Positions 19,180 to 57,629 of a stretch of DNA of 64,000 nucleotides are shown here, one piece after another (position 1 is the stretch's first letter; every line of letters starts with the position of its first letter). The DNA comes from Pseudomonadota bacterium (GTDB lineage Bacteria > Pseudomonadota > Alphaproteobacteria > Dongiales > Dongiaceae): positions 312,901-376,900 of the forward strand of contig JACPDN010000005.1 of assembly GCA_016183985.1 (NCBI GenBank). The letters run 5' to 3'. The position numbers and the translations under genes were made by a program. The notes beneath the pieces were generated by a model that searched no databases, was not told the origin of the DNA, and saw only the letters and a program-made list of their open reading frames with translations.

Positions 19180-19557
19180 TCAGGCGAGGCTTGAACGCAT
19201 GATGGCAAGGCCCAGAAAGACAGCGCCGATCGAGAGCAGGACGGAAGCCAGTACATAAAAGGCAACGGGGCCGACGGCGCCGCGCTCATAAAGCATCGCC
19301 GTGTCGAGCGAGAAGGCCGAGAAGGTCGTGAAGCCGCCGAGAATGCCGGTGGTGAGAAAAAGCCGCCATGACTGGCTCGCCTCCCCCTTAAAGGCGAAGT
19401 ATCCGGCGACAAGGCCCATCGTCAGTGATCCCAGCACATTGATGACCAACGTCCACCAAGGAAAATCGGGACCGAGGACACGCAACGTGGCCGAGTTGAC
19501 GCCATGGCGGATGGCGCCGCCAATGCCCGCCCCGATAAAGACGATGAGATAGTTCAT
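19180..19557 (-). CDS. crcB: Fluoride efflux channel CrcB/FluC
   Basis: GAGIGGAIRH, WTLVINVLGS, TTGILGGFTTFSAFS; start at MNYLIVF with GAGGGGG RBS. Confidence 0.95.
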   Translation of the reverse strand: MNYLIVFIGAGIGGAIRHGVNSATLRVLGPDFPWWTLVINVLGSLTMGLVAGYFAFKGEASQSWRLFLTTGILGGFTTFSAFSLDTAMLYERGAVGPVAFYVLASVLLSIGAVFLGLAIMRSSLA

Positions 19558-19709
19558 GATCGATAGCCCCCTCTTCGTGCCGGCAGAATAGTGATCGACG
19601 ACACGACCGCGGCGCAAGTGGCCACACATCCTGCCTACATGCAGCCGATATGGAAGGCAATGCGGCGGGTGCAAAGCTAATTGCGTTGACGGTAAGGCGC
19701 GACCGGGCC

Positions 19710-20111
19710 CTACACCGCCGATTCAGCACCCCGACCGCGTTGGCGTTGGGCGAGGTATTTGGTGTTGGTGATACGCAGTTCGGTCGCCGTCGTTTCGACC
19801 AGATGATCGATGAGGCGCGTTTCCTCCGGCTTGCCTGCCGCGAACTTTCTCGCGCGGATATCGGCGGCAAGCTGGCGGCGCAGGGCGGCAAGATCGTCGC
19901 CGACATCGCGGCCGTAAAGACGCGCAAAGCTCTGCAACTCGCTGCGGCGCGATTCAGCGGCGCCTTCGAGATCCTGCTTGGCCACCGAAATGGCGCGCGC
20001 AATCATCGCGGCCTGGAATTTCTGGCGGCCGTTCAAGGTCGGCAGCAGATCTTCCTGCAATGTCGTCAGAGCCGCCTCGAGTAGCGCATCGGCGCCCGGT
20101 CGCTGCTTCAT
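19710..20111 (-). CDS. DUF6285/LvaB-like small protein
   Basis: RPGADALLEAALTTLQEDLLP, KFQAAMIARA, ELRITNTKY; overlaps the stop of the APH kinase gene. Confidence 0.65.
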   Translation of the reverse strand: MKQRPGADALLEAALTTLQEDLLPTLNGRQKFQAAMIARAISVAKQDLEGAAESRRSELQSFARLYGRDVGDDLAALRRQLAADIRARKFAAGKPEETRLIDHLVETTATELRITNTKYLAQRQRGRGAESAV

Positions 20112-21187
20112 GCGGCATCTCCTTCTTCATTGCGCTTCTTCGGCACAGGCTTGAAGCCCGGCAGGCGCAGATCGATCAGCAGGTCGTATTCCATTTCCAG
20201 CGAGACCAAGCCAGTCAGCGCCAGCTCCATCGATCGTTCGCGCCCCGAGAGATGCCGCTCTGCCTGCTCCAGCGACATGATGGCCCAGCGCAGCGCAGCC
20301 ATCTGTTCCCAGAAGCGCACCTTGCCATCGTCGACCGGTGCACCACCAGCCGCTTCGTAGCCGGCATAGAAGGCGTCGCGCCGGCCGATGCCGCCGGCCT
20401 CGGCGCTATACATGCCGAAGCGCCAGCAACGGGCGCAGAACCAGCCGAGATCCTCGTAAGGGTCCGACCAGCCGGCGAATTCGAAATCCAGCACGCCGGT
20501 AAGGCCGGCATTCTCGACGAGGTAATTGCCGGTGCGGAAATCGCGGTGACAGAACCGGATGACATCACCGCCGCGTGCATAAGCAGGTGCCTCGTCTTCC
20601 AGGCGGTTGACCGCCCATTCCAGCACCGGCTGCGCTTCAGGCAATGCGTCGAGGCGGCGGCGAAATTCGGCAAGCCGCGCTGCCACCAGATCGGCGGCCG
20701 GTGCCGGCAGGAAGGCGAGATCCGCCTGTGCCGCAGCCGGTGCAATGCGATGAAGCTTGGCAAGTTCGGCGCCAAGCTCTTGTGCCAGGGCATCGCCCTC
20801 CTCTTCCTCCAGCGCCCGCACAAGCTTCCTGGGATCGGCGGAACCGGAAAGGCGCTGCGTCAGGTGAAAGGGCTGGCCGATGACGGATCCTGTTTCCTCC
20901 AGCCACAGAGGCTGCGGCGCCTTGACCCCAGCGGCATGCACCACTTTGAGCAGGGCGAACTCCTGCGCCTTGCCCCAGCTTTCGTCGATACCGGATGGGG
21001 CGTCGGCGCGCAGGATCGCGGCAATGGTCTTGCCATCGATCGCGAGATCGACCGCCCAGTTCTCCTGAATGGCGCCGCCGCCCAGGCGACCGACGAGTTT
21101 GACGGCGACCTCCTTGGCGCCGGTCGCGCGGCGCAGGAATGCCTCGATGGCAGCGATATTATTGGCGAGCATGACGCTCAACCCCAT
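20108..21187 (-). CDS. APH/choline kinase-family phosphotransferase (LvaA-like)
   Basis: GGGAIQENW, AQEFALLK, FCHRDFRTGNY, GVLDFEFAGWSDPYEDLGW; start may be at 21172. Confidence 0.88.
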   Translation of the reverse strand: MGLSVMLANNIAAIEAFLRRATGAKEVAVKLVGRLGGGAIQENWAVDLAIDGKTIAAILRADAPSGIDESWGKAQEFALLKVVHAAGVKAPQPLWLEETGSVIGQPFHLTQRLSGSADPRKLVRALEEEEGDALAQELGAELAKLHRIAPAAAQADLAFLPAPAADLVAARLAEFRRRLDALPEAQPVLEWAVNRLEDEAPAYARGGDVIRFCHRDFRTGNYLVENAGLTGVLDFEFAGWSDPYEDLGWFCARCWRFGMYSAEAGGIGRRDAFYAGYEAAGGAPVDDGKVRFWEQMAALRWAIMSLEQAERHLSGRERSMELALTGLVSLEMEYDLLIDLRLPGFKPVPKKRNEEGDAA

Positions 21188-22377
21188 TTCCAGAAATCGG
21201 CGCCTTCAGCAGCCAAATGCTGCGCCAGGACCATCTTATGCACTTCCGACGCGCCATCGACGAGGCGCGCTTGCCTTGCATAGCGATAAATCCATTCAAG
21301 AATCGTGTCCTTGGAATAGCCCTTGGCACCCAAAAGCTGGATGGCGGTGTCCACGGCCTTGTGCAGGCAGTCAGCCACGGCGACCTTGGCCATCGACACT
21401 TCTTTGCGCGCGCGATGACCGAGATCGAGCTGATAGGCGGCATTGAAGGTGAGCAGCCGGCCCATCTGCACCTGCATCGCGGCTTCGCCCAGCATCCATT
21501 GCACGCCTTCATGTTCCATCAGCTTGGTGCCAAAGGCTTCGCGCGCGCCGACATGCTGGACGGCAATGTCGAGGCAGCGCTTGGAAAGGCCCAGCCAGCG
21601 CATGCAATGCGTCAGCCGTGCAATGCCGAGGCGGATCTGCACAGCCTTCAACCCCTCGCCCACACCCATCAGGCGGTCGGCATCGTCTATCTCGAGCCCG
21701 TCGAATATGAGCTCGCAATGGCCGCCATGCTCTTCCGGCCCCATGATCGGGATGCGGCGTTCGATACGCCAGCCGGGCTGACTGCGGTCGAACAGAAAGG
21801 CCGTGAGGCCGCGGCGTGGATCGTCGGCGGTGCGCGCCAGCAGGATGAAATGCTCGGCCGCTTCACCGCCGGTGATGAACCATTTGTGGCCGCGGATGAT
21901 CCATTTGTTGCCGCGCTTCTCGGCAGTCGTCTTCATCATGCCAGCGGGGTCGGAGCCAGAGCCGGGTGCCGGTTCCGTCATGACGATGGCAGAGCGCACC
22001 TCGCCATGGACGATCGGCATCAACCAGCGCTGCTGCTGCTCGGGAGTTGCCACGCGCGCGAGTAGATGGATGTTGCCGTCATCGGGTGCGGCGATGTTGA
22101 AACAGACGGGACCGAAGATGGAGCGGCCGGCAGCCTCGTAGATCGGGACCAGCTCGGTGAATTTGAGGCCCTTGCCGCCGAGATGTTCGGGCAGCTGGAA
22201 GTTCCACAAGCCGGCCGCCAGCGCCTTGGCGTGAAGCTGCTGCAGCAGTTCCTCACGGATATTCTCGCCGGCGTCGAAACTGGCGCGCTCACGCTCCAGC
22301 GGGATGACGTGTTCGTCGAGGAAGGAATCGATGCGGCGGACGTAGTCGGCAGCGCGCGGGCTGATCGAGAAATCCAT
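21178..22377 (-). CDS. Acyl-CoA dehydrogenase (LvaC-like)
   Basis: FNIAAPDDGN, SAIVMTEP, RGHKWFITG, QIRLGIARLTHCMR, ARLVDGASEVH. Confidence 0.93.
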   Translation of the reverse strand: MDFSISPRAADYVRRIDSFLDEHVIPLERERASFDAGENIREELLQQLHAKALAAGLWNFQLPEHLGGKGLKFTELVPIYEAAGRSIFGPVCFNIAAPDDGNIHLLARVATPEQQQRWLMPIVHGEVRSAIVMTEPAPGSGSDPAGMMKTTAEKRGNKWIIRGHKWFITGGEAAEHFILLARTADDPRRGLTAFLFDRSQPGWRIERRIPIMGPEEHGGHCELIFDGLEIDDADRLMGVGEGLKAVQIRLGIARLTHCMRWLGLSKRCLDIAVQHVGAREAFGTKLMEHEGVQWMLGEAAMQVQMGRLLTFNAAYQLDLGHRARKEVSMAKVAVADCLHKAVDTAIQLLGAKGYSKDTILEWIYRYARQARLVDGASEVHKMVLAQHLAAEGADFWKWG

Positions 22378-22389
22378 GGGTAGGGCTTT

Positions 22390-23154
22390 CTAAAGGCTGG
22401 AATTGAGGTGGCCGCCGTCGACGGTGAGCACGGCGCCGGTCATGTAGCGCGAGGCATCGCCGGCCAAAAGCAGCAGCGGGCCGTCGAGATCCTGCGGGTT
22501 GCCCAAACGCCGTTGCGGGATGCGTTTGACGAGCGCGGCGCCGGCTTCGGTATTGAAGAATGCGTCGTTGAGAGCGGTCCGGATATAGCCCGGGGCCAGC
22601 GCATTGACGCGAATATTGTGTCGCGCCCATTCCAGGGACAGGGCCTTGGTCATCTGGATCATCCCGGCCTTGGAGACGGCATAGGGCAGCGTTTGGGCGG
22701 CGACGCGCTGGCCGAGGATCGAGGCGATATTGATGATGTTGCCCGGGCGCTTTGCCGCCACCCAGCGGCGGGCCGCTTCCTGAGCCGCCAGCCACGCGCC
22801 TTTGAGATTGGTGTCGATGACCTGATCCCAATCGCTGTCGGGGAGTTCCAACGACGGCGTGGTAAGCGAGACTCCGGCATTGTTGATGAGGAGTGAGATC
22901 GGCCCCAGCTCGTTCTCGGCGGCGGCAAAAGCGGCGTTAAGCCCCTTGGCCAGCGTGATGTCGCCAGTGACGGACACAGCCTTCAATCCCCGCGCGCGGA
23001 GCTTCTCAGCCTCGGCAGCGACGACGTCGCCGCGTCGGGCCATCAGGGCCACCGCCGCGCCGGCTTCCGCGAGGACGGATGCGAAATGCCGCCCCAGATC
23101 GCCGGATGCACCGGTCACCAGGGCTACCTGCCCGGAAAGATCGAACGCCGCCAT
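22390..23154 (-). CDS. SDR oxidoreductase (LvaD/FabG-like)
   Basis: TGASGDLG, NNAG, YAVSK, RVNALAPG; start moved to MAAFDLSG. Confidence 0.92.
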   Translation of the reverse strand: MAAFDLSGQVALVTGASGDLGRHFASVLAEAGAAVALMARRGDVVAAEAEKLRARGLKAVSVTGDITLAKGLNAAFAAAENELGPISLLINNAGVSLTTPSLELPDSDWDQVIDTNLKGAWLAAQEAARRWVAAKRPGNIINIASILGQRVAAQTLPYAVSKAGMIQMTKALSLEWARHNIRVNALAPGYIRTALNDAFFNTEAGAALVKRIPQRRLGNPQDLDGPLLLLAGDASRYMTGAVLTVDGGHLNSSL

Positions 23155-23233
23155 CCTCGCCCCTGATCTTCTTATCTTCACGCCGGATGGCACTATGCCC
23201 GGGGGCGACGATGAAGGGAAAGGCTTCGACGTC

Positions 23234-23273
23234 AAAAAATGAAACCCGCCGCGGCCTCGGCCCGGCGGGTTTC
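23234..23273 (-). terminator. Intrinsic terminator closing the intergenic transcript
   Basis: Minus strand GAAACCCGCCG-loop-CGGCGGGTTTC then ATTTTTT. Confidence 0.85.
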
Positions 23274-23592
23274 GCTTTGTCTTTATGTCGCAGGGATCTA
23301 ACTGGGCGGATCGGGATTGAGGAGAACCCACGTTTCACCGCCGCCCTTAGGCCCATGACTGCTGCCCAGAACAGGCAGCATGAGAAAGGCCCCTCGGTAT
23401 CCCTGGTTCTCACATCAGAGATTTCAATCTGCTGTGGTAGCCAGATTGTGGTGTCTTATCGCCGGTGGAGTCATGTTTCTTAGGCACCCTCCTTGGCTTG
23501 GTTGCGGGAAGCACTTCCGCAAAGCCAGCTTGGACCCCCGTCTCCTGGAAGGGGGAAGCGGCGCTGGAAGATCCAGAAATCGCGCGCTTCCC
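23234..23592 (-). ncRNA. Candidate ~350-nt structured non-coding RNA, family not recognised
   Basis: Between a sigma70-like promoter and an intrinsic terminator; no credible ORF; at least 7 local stems and 2 long-range pairings (see findings). Confidence 0.5.
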
Positions 23593-23672: not shown

Positions 23673-24200
23673 TTACTTCTTGCCGGCCTCGATCGACTTG
23701 CGGATGAGATCAACCGCCTCTTCCGGCTCGGCCCAACGCGAGAACTTCACCCACTTCCCCTTCTCCAGATCCTTGTAATGGCTGAAGAAATGGCGGACCT
23801 GCTCGCGCAGGACTTCCGGCAGGTCGCGATACGAGCTGACGTTCGAATAGAAGGGATGCAGCTTGTCGACCGGCACCGCGATAATCTTTTCATCGCCGCC
23901 GGCCTCGTCTTCCATCATCAGGCAACCGACAGGGCGCGAACGCACGACGGCGCCGGGAACGACGGGGGTGGGCCCCAGGACGATGATGTCCAAGGGATCG
24001 CCGTCGCCACCCAGGGTATGCGGGATGAAGCCATAATTGCCGGGGTAGAACATTGCCGTGTAGAGGAAGCGGTCGACGAACATCGCGCCCGAATCCTTGT
24101 CGAGCTCGTATTTCACCGGCGTGCCGCCGAGCGGAATCTCGATGATCGCGTTGAGGTCGTAAGGCGGGTTCTCGCCGATCTTGATCTTGCTGATATCCAT
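23673..24200 (-). CDS. ppa: Inorganic pyrophosphatase (family I)
   Basis: IIEIP, KYELDK, VDRFLYTAMFYPGNYGFIPHTLGGDGDPLD, DEAGGDEK, HYKDLEKGKW; start at MDISKIK. Confidence 0.97.
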   Translation of the reverse strand: MDISKIKIGENPPYDLNAIIEIPLGGTPVKYELDKDSGAMFVDRFLYTAMFYPGNYGFIPHTLGGDGDPLDIIVLGPTPVVPGAVVRSRPVGCLMMEDEAGGDEKIIAVPVDKLHPFYSNVSSYRDLPEVLREQVRHFFSHYKDLEKGKWVKFSRWAEPEEAVDLIRKSIEAGKK

Positions 24201-24315
24201 GATGGTCTCTTTTTCGGGGCTGCGGCCTGCCAGGCGGCGGGCCTTTGCTGCACTGCAAATAAAGACCAATCCCCCGCCTCTGCAAGAAAAAAGCACGGGG
24301 AAACCGGATGGTCAC

Positions 24316-39532: not shown

Positions 39533-39608
39533 TGGTGGGCGATGACGGACTCGAACCGCCGACATTCTCGGTGTAAACGAGACGCTCTACCAACTGAGCT
39601 AATCGCCC
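39533..39608 (-). tRNA. tRNA-Val(TAC)
   Basis: GGGCGATTAGCTCAGTTGGTAGAGCGTCTCGTTTACACCGAGAATGTCGGCGGTTCGAGTCCGTCATCGCCCACCA; 76 nt with encoded CCA. Confidence 0.97.
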
Positions 39609-57215: not shown

Positions 57216-57337
57216 AATAAATCCCCTTACTGTCATTCACGCCGGATGGGGATATCGCATCTTGATCGGCCGGCATCTTTCGACGTCACCTCGATCACAC
57301 CGCGCGGACACCCCGTCCGGAATACGGATTCGCTTCG

Positions 57338-57555
57338 CCGCTGGCAGGTCTCCTGGCTCACGAGTGACTGGCGGCGCCACCTTCCCAACCGATCTCGGCA
57401 CTTTTGCGTACCGTTTCTCGGCCAGTGGTTACTTCGGCGTCCGCCCCTCGCTTACAGTTGCGGGGGCAGTCACGGCTTTGGCCCCTATTTGGGTCGTCCG
57501 CACCGTGTTCCCTATTAATCCCCTGGAATCTATCCATTGGGGAACCATCGACATC
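57338..57555 (-). ncRNA. Cobalamin (AdoCbl) riboswitch
   Basis: GGTTC, AATAGGGAACACGGTG, GACTGCCCCCGCAACTGTAA, CCACTG, TGGGAAGG, GAGCCAGGAGACCTGCC; upstream of cbtB. Confidence 0.95.
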
Positions 57556-57629
57556 CGATCATTCGCCGAGCCGTCACGCGGCGTCAAGGAATTTGTCCAA
57601 TCCCCGACGGCCAGACATCTGCTTTTCTC

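Follow-up and report, generated by a model that had tools for sequence, protein, structure and literature searches.

Four consecutive minus-strand genes in the alphaproteobacterial DNA analysed here (the window, 64,000 nucleotides) encode, in this order, a short-chain dehydrogenase (SDR), an acyl-CoA dehydrogenase (ACAD), an APH-family kinase and a small DUF6285 protein, and occupy positions 19710-23154. Judged by sequence, they are true counterparts of Pseudomonas lvaD, lvaC, lvaA and lvaB. They probably make up one operon for the core of the Lva route, by which 4-oxo and 4-hydroxy acids would be brought into beta-oxidation via a phosphorylated intermediate. An earlier note on this DNA had described an SDR, an ACAD, an APH kinase and a small helical protein, tightly packed or overlapping; the open reading frame list, the sequence and Pfam confirmed this description, and its coordinates agreed with the list and the sequence. 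Transcription of all four genes as a single unit is predicted by analogy with characterised homologues. The features are listed in Table 1.

Table 1. Features of the lva-type gene cluster, with positions counted within the window.
Feature	Position	Strand	Length	Predicted role
LvaD-like SDR	22390..23154	-	254 aa	probable 4-oxoacyl-CoA reductase
LvaC-like ACAD, ACAD10/11 type	21178..22377	-	399 aa	probable 4-phosphoacyl-CoA phosphate-eliminating enzyme
LvaA-like APH-family kinase	20108..21187	-	359 aa	probable 4-hydroxyacyl-CoA kinase
LvaB-like DUF6285 protein	19710..20111	-	133 aa	probable kinase small subunit
Intergenic stretch, upstream terminator to SDR start	23155..23240	-		probable operon promoter and 5' UTR (inferred)

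The SDR and ACAD genes are separated by 12 nt. The ACAD and kinase genes overlap by 10 nt in different frames and are not fused, unlike in ACAD10/ACAD11, and the kinase stop and the start of the LvaB-like gene share a 4-nt ATGA overlap. The SDR gene starts with the ATG at 23154, which has a purine-rich stretch on its 5' side. A longer open reading frame for the SDR, starting with GTG and reaching 23331, runs into an intrinsic terminator (hairpin and T-run, 23241-23275) located upstream of the SDR gene. For the kinase, an ATG at 21171 is an alternative start.

As a reference we used the lva operon of the P. putida group, read from the P. aeruginosa plasmid p12939-PER and from P. guariconensis LMG 27394; these are relatives of the operon of strain KT2440 and not KT2440 itself. 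The LvaA of p12939-PER was 100% identical to that of P. guariconensis and 83-91% identical to those of other P. putida-group genomes. On the plasmid, a prpR-type regulator stands next to the series LvaA-LvaB-LvaC-LvaD-LvaE-DUF485-acetate symporter, and the small gene is named '4-hydroxypentanoyl-CoA kinase subunit LvaB' by PGAP. Over nearly their full length, the four proteins shared 44% (A), 39% (B), 43% (C) and 54% (D) identity with their P. putida-group counterparts. All four were reciprocal best hits of LvaA, LvaB, LvaC and LvaD with clear margins, between this genome on the one side and three Pseudomonas genomes on the other, and their best Pseudomonas matches were contiguous in the order A-B-C-D. 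The earlier note had named this very comparison as the one that could refute its reading, and the matches proved reciprocal in both directions for every protein. Together with the LvaC/ACAD11 signature residues of the ACAD described below, these reciprocal matches support its assignment of the four genes to the lva type.

The SDR matched the Pfam family adh_short_C2 with 180 bits, and adh_short was matched as well. It was 54% identical over 251 aa to P. putida-group LvaD, the levulinyl-CoA reductase, and the alignment of the two showed a glycine-rich motif of the TGxxxGxG type and S...YxxxK. In a search of this genome with LvaD, the SDR scored 243 bits vs. 175 bits for the next match; in the reverse search against the three Pseudomonas genomes, LvaD scored 243-248 bits and other proteins at most 139 bits.

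The kinase matched the Pfam family APH with 115 bits and LvaA with 44% identity over 325 aa. It was the sole match to LvaA in this genome, and LvaA was its top match in the three Pseudomonas genomes. The HRDxRTGN motif and the aspartate of LDxEF (H214, D216, N221, and D234) were invariant across 13 LvaA-type sequences. A profile of LvaA-type sequences matched the kinase domain of ACAD11 with an E-value of 1e-20, vs. 1e-4 and weaker for aminoglycoside kinases.

The ACAD contained the N, M, and C domains of Acyl-CoA_dh (Pfam; 44, 72, and 127 bits, respectively). Its best solved relatives were 4hr3 and mouse and human ACAD11, with E-values from 4e-62 to 1e-57. The match between the ACAD and LvaC scored 308 bits, with 202 bits for the runner-up in this genome, and 307-316 bits vs. 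251 bits in Pseudomonas. Residues R249, H257, R260, and D374 aligned with R626, H634, R637, and D753 of ACAD11, where the Arg/His/Arg set and the catalytic aspartate are tied to recognition of the phosphoacyl-CoA and to catalysis (PMC12440821). The same pocket and aspartate were present in all lva-linked ACADs aligned, including LvaC, and the Arg/His/Arg pocket was absent from three other ACAD paralogues of this genome in the alignment. With these signature residues kept, the enzyme is probably of the phosphate-eliminating LvaC/ACAD10/ACAD11 type. It belongs to a distinct subtype, with 65-66% identity to the ACADs of other alphaproteobacterial clusters vs. 40-43% to Pseudomonas LvaC.

The small protein matched DUF6285 with 56.9 bits (cut-off 28.1) and the PGAP-named LvaB with 39% identity (E-value 2e-9); each was the single and best match of the other in both directions. 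No NCBIfam model matched it, a result that is uninformative because the PGAP-named LvaB was equally unmatched. Its AlphaFold2 model is an all-helical bundle (mean pLDDT 80.5), for which a Foldseek search of the PDB returned no match at E <= 0.001, so that the fold adds only the word helical. The protein ends with a 13-residue genus-specific C-terminal tail terminating in GAESAV. DUF6285 was named in no paper of the literature searched. The protein is probably the partner subunit of the kinase, in the manner of LvaB, whose size is about 12 kDa.

Of 18 genomes sampled in the genus, 17 encoded the kinase. The cluster lies between ppa and crcB, and all genomes of the genus whose flanks were examined (9/9) agree in its four genes and their order. 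D-C-A-B with no ligase gene also occurs on plasmid pAB510b of Azospirillum sp. B510 and on plasmid pD4M1C of Paroceanicella profunda; this, together with the identical order in the nine genomes of the genus, shows that the four genes do not stand side by side by chance. Other Alphaproteobacteria, namely Rhodovibrio and Kiloniellales MAGs, have the order E-D-C-A-B. The gene order does differ from the A-B-C-D of Pseudomonas, as claimed earlier, but it is not peculiar to this genome and represents a common alphaproteobacterial layout. By gene content and sequence, this ligase-free D-C-A-B layout is a version of the Lva route that recurs in Alphaproteobacteria and has an LvaC subtype of its own.

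Upstream of the SDR gene, the block GGGCATAGTGC (23190-23200) was conserved in the six closest relatives within the genus. A consensus scan found no sigma-70 promoter in a region that includes 23155-23240, so that the operon promoter there is only presumed. Between ppa and the operon there is a conserved sRNA-like element. We weighed whether it serves the operon as a leader or attenuator, and rejected this role: in two relatives of the genus a FecR-domain gene separates the element from the SDR gene, and in other families it adjoins unrelated genes. A search ahead of crcB gave no fluoride riboswitch.

The operon has no ligase, transporter, or regulator gene in cis. No AMP-binding gene was present within several kb of the operon, and LvaE is thus not encoded beside it. 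A whole-genome tblastn search located the nearest LvaE relative on contig C14 (52.5% identity) among unrelated genes. In Pseudomonas, this ligase matched a paralogue of LvaE with 647 bits and LvaE itself with 590 bits. The suggestion that the ligase lies elsewhere is therefore plausible as far as an LvaE-family gene exists on C14, but that gene is slightly closer to the paralogue than to LvaE. The companion suggestion of a regulator elsewhere found no support: whole-genome tblastn yielded no counterpart of LvaR, only its residues ~300 to 650, the generic sigma-54 AAA+/HTH half, being matched. The same search gave no matches to LvaF or LvaG. A GntR gene about 3 kb away was considered as the regulator and set aside; it is syntenic in the genus, yet nothing ties it to the operon.

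In the proposed pathway, an acyl-CoA ligase encoded elsewhere, for which the LvaE-family enzyme of contig C14 is the candidate, would form the CoA thioester. The LvaD-like SDR would then reduce the 4-oxoacyl-CoA to the 4-hydroxyacyl-CoA with NAD(P)H, and the LvaAB-like pair of APH kinase and DUF6285 partner would phosphorylate the 4-hydroxyl at the expense of ATP. Finally, the LvaC-like flavoenzyme of the ACAD10/11 type would eliminate the phosphate to give a 2-enoyl-CoA or 3-hydroxyacyl-CoA for ordinary beta-oxidation. We infer every step and every substrate from characterised homologues; levulinate, 4-hydroxyvalerate, acids derived from gamma-lactones, and 4-hydroxy acids derived from lipid peroxidation could all be substrates.

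The same enzymes could have another role, the constitutive housekeeping salvage of 4-hydroxy- and 4-oxoacyl-CoAs from lactones or oxidised lipids with any available ligase, a reading we regard as the lesser possibility, though a serious one. It is consistent with a cluster that belongs to the core of the genus and keeps its place there between the housekeeping genes ppa and crcB, with the missing dedicated ligase, transporter, and sigma-54 regulator, and with the recurrence of the bare D-C-A-B set in Azospirillum and Paroceanicella. A dedicated ligase is dispensable, since P. putida lacking lvaE is reported to grow on levulinate all the same (PMC6692424). The retention of an LvaD-type reductase, however, suggests that 4-oxo acids such as levulinate do enter the route, and the missing in cis regulator does not prove constitutive expression.

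It is improbable that the kinase-ACAD pair acts on some other hydroxyacyl thioester (with the hydroxyl at another position, branched, or aromatic) and resembles the Lva system only in its logic of phosphorylating and then eliminating. The distance of the ACAD subtype from the assayed LvaC (40-43% identity) and of the kinase from LvaA (44%) leaves room for such a substrate. Against it, each of the four proteins and its counterpart among LvaA-D are reciprocal best hits, the ACAD and LvaC agree in their phosphate-pocket residues and catalytic aspartate, and an LvaD-like reductase accompanies the pair, as it does in the canonical operon. In PMC11342911, 4-, 5-, and further hydroxy-hexanoates were tested on ACAD10 cells; we base no argument about specificity on that work. 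It is hardly credible that the four genes are neighbours with no function in common, the ACAD serving ordinary beta-oxidation, the SDR being a general one, and the kinase acting on an antibiotic or small molecule: NCBIfam matches for kinase, ACAD, and SDR were only generic and below cut-off, but the junctions overlap, other genera and classes have the same gene order, the signature residues distinguish the ACAD from this genome's ordinary ACADs, and the kinase profile favours the ACAD11 domain over aminoglycoside kinases.

The core route remains our preferred reading, and the operon can be set beside four known systems. The P. putida operon is lvaR and lvaABCDEFG (Rand et al., 2017, in the summary given by PMC6692424), and the chemistry of LvaABCDE is described in PMC6692424; that of ACAD10/11 and the Burkholderia orthologues is covered in PMC11342911 and PMC12440821. 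Shared with the P. putida group are the LvaA, LvaB, LvaC, and LvaD core, the small-partner gene placed straight after the kinase gene and overlapping or abutting it, and identical LvaC signature residues. The present operon differs in its D-C-A-B order, in 39-54% identity with a separate ACAD subtype, in having no in cis LvaE, LvaF/G pair, or PrpR-type sigma-54 regulator, and in the 13-residue tail of its LvaB-like protein.

The alphaproteobacterial clusters (Azospirillum, Paroceanicella, and MAGs), whose public annotation is generic, share the D-C-A-B order, an ACAD of 65-66% and a kinase of 45-48% identity, and the absence of an adjacent regulator. The Rhodovibrio and Kiloniellales MAGs differ by an LvaE-type ligase in front and the Azospirillum cluster by an extra histidine-phosphatase-family gene; these clusters are plasmid-borne or of unknown context, whereas the one described here is chromosomal and syntenic in the genus.

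Mammalian ACAD10/ACAD11 have homologous kinase and ACAD domains with the same catalytic aspartate and Arg/His/Arg phosphate pocket, and the same logic of phosphorylating a 4-hydroxyacyl-CoA and eliminating the phosphate (PMC12440821, PMC11342911). In them, kinase and ACAD are fused and there is neither an LvaB-like subunit nor a dedicated reductase; here the two proteins are separate and accompanied by a DUF6285 partner. The unfused LvaA/LvaC orthologues of Burkholderia pseudomallei, compared here by their description in PMC11342911, are likewise a bacterial pair of separate kinase and ACAD; according to that paper they replace the ACAD10 domains in vitro and resemble ACAD10 more closely than the P. 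putida proteins do.

The operon adds one more ordinary member to a system that is known and widespread, and represents no new kind of biology. Earlier publications already cover the Lva pathway, what LvaB does in it, the link to ACAD10/11, and lvaABCD homologues in Alphaproteobacteria. The analysis gives a testable function to four genes publicly labelled 'phosphotransferase family protein', 'acyl-CoA dehydrogenase family protein', 'DUF6285', and 'SDR', and adds a compact four-gene variant for the valorisation of levulinate and gamma-valerolactone. We propose, quite tentatively, that the bare lvaDCAB set is a vertically inherited core module of the genus, with a distinct LvaC subtype and a tailed LvaB variant, serving to clear 4-hydroxy- and 4-oxoacyl-CoAs in general, as the bacterial equivalent of ACAD10/11 and not as a pathway for growth on levulinate. 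If this is true, the conserved C-terminal tail of the LvaB variant might alter the assembly or control of the kinase complex.

The earlier note had claimed a tight array of genes for a short-chain dehydrogenase (SDR), an acyl-CoA dehydrogenase (ACAD), an APH kinase and a small helical protein, and all four were found at exactly the positions it assigned, on the minus strand. Open reading frames and sequence revealed a 12-nt spacer between the SDR and ACAD genes, a 10-nt overlap of the ACAD and kinase genes and a 4-nt ATGA overlap of the kinase and small-protein genes. NCBIfam matches for the cluster proteins were generic and below cut-off only. With 15 homologues as input, AlphaFold2 modelled the small protein as a helical bundle (mean pLDDT 80.5), which confirms the claimed helical character; model confidence was low at the C-terminal tail. 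This tail of ~13 residues (…QRQRGRGAESAV, encoded at window 19710-19751) was conserved in the genus and missing in LvaB proteins of Pseudomonas, Glaciimonas, Kiloniellales, and others.

Features of the window, with identities of the cluster proteins to canonical LvaA-D
Feature	Position	Strand	Description	Canonical counterpart
SDR (LvaD-like)	22390-23154	minus	254 aa; Pfam adh_short/adh_short_C2	LvaD, 54% over 251 aa
Acyl-CoA dehydrogenase (LvaC-like)	21178-22377	minus	399 aa; three ACAD domains in Pfam	LvaC, 43% over 388 aa
APH-family kinase (LvaA-like)	20108-21187	minus	359 aa; Pfam APH	LvaA, 44% over 325 aa
Small protein (LvaB-like)	19710-20111	minus	133 aa; Pfam DUF6285, 56.9 bits vs. cut-off 28.1	LvaB, 39% over 119 aa, E 2e-9
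Interval from LvaB-like gene to crcB	19555-19710			
Conserved, terminated, sRNA-like element	~23600 to 23235	minus	between ppa and SDR	
Strong intrinsic terminator	23241-23275			
Inorganic pyrophosphatase gene (ppa)	23673-24296		upstream flank	
tRNA gene	39536-39608	minus	Rfam scan, whole window	
Cobalamin riboswitch	57326-57564	minus	107 bits; Rfam scan, whole window	

The canonical operon used for comparison was that of the P. aeruginosa plasmid p12939-PER, reached by tblastn of the window kinase against plasmids. It is annotated as a divergent prpR-type regulator followed by phosphotransferase, lvaB ("4-hydroxypentanoyl-CoA kinase subunit LvaB"), ACAD, SDR, acyl-CoA synthetase, DUF485, and cation/acetate symporter genes, the same layout as lvaR|lvaABCDEFG reported for KT2440 (PMC6692424). 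P. guariconensis LMG 27394 encodes the very same LvaA (100% identity), other P. putida-group genomes encode LvaA proteins 83-91% identical to it, and the eight-gene order of the plasmid operon is shared by all of these genomes. In Stutzerimonas stutzeri, the counterpart of the small lvaB gene is annotated DUF6285, which identifies LvaB as a DUF6285 protein.

When canonical LvaA-D were searched against the whole genome that holds the window, the best match of each was the window gene. LvaA and LvaB had no other match there; LvaC scored 308 bits with the window ACAD vs. 202 with the next ACAD, and LvaD 243 bits with the window SDR vs. 175 with the next among 48 SDRs. In the reverse search, the best matches in each of three whole P. 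putida-group genomes were the contiguous lvaA, lvaB, lvaC, and lvaD. Best hits were reciprocal for all four proteins, so the lack of reciprocity that would speak against the claimed lvaDCAB-like operon was not found.

The catalytic residues point in the same direction. The mammalian kinase-ACAD enzymes ACAD10/11 and LvaC uniquely share a catalytic Asp (D753) together with an Arg/His/Arg cluster (R626, H634, R637), residues that have been tied to the handling of 4-phosphoacyl-CoA (PMC12440821). In a HMMER alignment with mouse ACAD11, R249, H257, R260, and D374 of the window ACAD fell on these positions once the numbering of the deposited chain was shifted by one residue. The block RLxxARLTHCMRW and the Asp were present in every lva-linked ACAD of a 16-sequence alignment; three further ACAD paralogues in this genome lacked the His and second Arg. 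The second-best match to LvaC in this genome (contig C11:75764-76906, 36% identity) had Asp where the catalytic base is expected (RIWDGTSEIQ) but no Arg/His/Arg pocket. Another ACAD, with 37% identity to the window ACAD, was likewise present in the Pseudomonas genomes searched. The kinase motifs HRDxRTGN and, further on, LDxEF were invariant in 13/13 LvaA-type sequences, and a profile of these sequences placed the ACAD11 kinase domain among the top three solved structures (E 1e-20), with aminoglycoside kinases far behind. The window cluster thus belongs to a known Lva-type system, and the Lva-type chemistry claimed for it is supported by homology, that is, by gene structure, orthology, and residue conservation.

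The claim of a different gene order stood as far as Pseudomonas is concerned (D-C-A-B vs. A-B-C-D), but this layout is not unusual. Two plasmids, pAB510b of Azospirillum sp. B510 and pD4M1C of Paroceanicella profunda, also carry SDR-ACAD-APH-DUF6285 without a ligase, and in MAGs of Rhodovibrio and Kiloniellales the same four genes follow a ligase gene. ACADs from these clusters were 65-66% identical to the window ACAD vs. only 40-43% to Pseudomonas LvaC, which indicates that the alphaproteobacterial clusters share one LvaC subtype; judging by the alignments, this subtype keeps the signature residues. According to PMC6692424, as it cites Rand et al., lvaABCD homologues are found in Alpha-, Beta-, and Gammaproteobacteria. 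Several lva-type clusters contain or adjoin a histidine-phosphatase-family gene (Azospirillum sp. B510 pAB510b, locus L115:6406-6729; S. stutzeri plasmid, L010:8364-9125), as does that of P. citronellolis (PMC6692424); it was absent from the window cluster.

Within the genus, the kinase was present in 17/18 sampled genomes, the sole genome without a match being 78% complete. The order ppa-SDR-ACAD-APH-DUF6285 was kept in all nine relatives for which flanks were fetched, with protein identities spanning about 45-90%, which argues for an old, vertically inherited cluster and not an island. Downstream, on the same strand, lies crcB, its distance from the cluster ranging among relatives from ~70 nt to ~1.9 kb; neither a terminator nor a fluoride riboswitch was detected in the interval ahead of it (window 19555-19710).

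Between ppa and the operon, the sRNA-like element had the core GGAGGGTG-N9-CATGACTCCACCGG, with a Shine-Dalgarno-like stretch and an AUG within a single invariant hairpin, in which GGAG of this stretch pairs with CUCC immediately 3' of the AUG. A second conserved hairpin, a covarying hairpin, and the terminator, which sets the operon apart from upstream DNA, follow. The mini-ORF (MTPPAI...TAD, 16 aa) differed in length among relatives; its first codons had zero synonymous change, pointing to constraint on RNA. The element was single-copy in the genome, present in 9/9 genus relatives, and matched no Rfam family. Its core pattern also occurred in five other alphaproteobacterial families beside unrelated genes (0 hits for the reversed pattern); carriers outside the genus included the unpublished genome G260, and one such genome had three copies, two in tandem. 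In two genus relatives (G001, G013), a FecR-domain gene (207 aa; locus L097:11608-12231, minus) lies between the element and the SDR gene, and the element was therefore rejected as a leader of the operon.

For the window cluster, we infer co-transcription, substrate, and chemistry. A ligase would form the CoA ester, the SDR would turn 4-oxoacyl-CoA into 4-hydroxyacyl-CoA, the kinase with its DUF6285 partner would yield 4-phosphoacyl-CoA, and the ACAD would remove the phosphate to give enoyl- or 3-hydroxyacyl-CoA. The earlier note had placed the ligase and regulator elsewhere. In a tblastn search of the whole genome with LvaR, LvaE, LvaF, and LvaG, one strong LvaE relative was found (contig C14:97038-98642; locus L091:9030-10808, minus; 52.5% identity over 537 aa). 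It stands alone among unrelated neighbors (TerB-DnaJ, ABC-F, copper chaperone, two-component system) and scored slightly better with a Pseudomonas LvaE paralogue (647 bits) than with LvaE (590 bits). This enzyme is a plausible candidate for catalyzing the activation but not, strictly, an LvaE orthologue. The P. putida lvaE mutant retained growth on levulinate, as PMC6692424 relates from Rand et al. The proposed regulator was not recovered, as LvaR matched only in its generic sigma-54 AAA+/HTH half, and the transport pair LvaF and LvaG had no counterpart. Since the module has no dedicated ligase, transporter, or regulator and is core in the genus, it may be a general salvage route for 4-hydroxy and 4-oxo acids rather than one for growth on levulinate.
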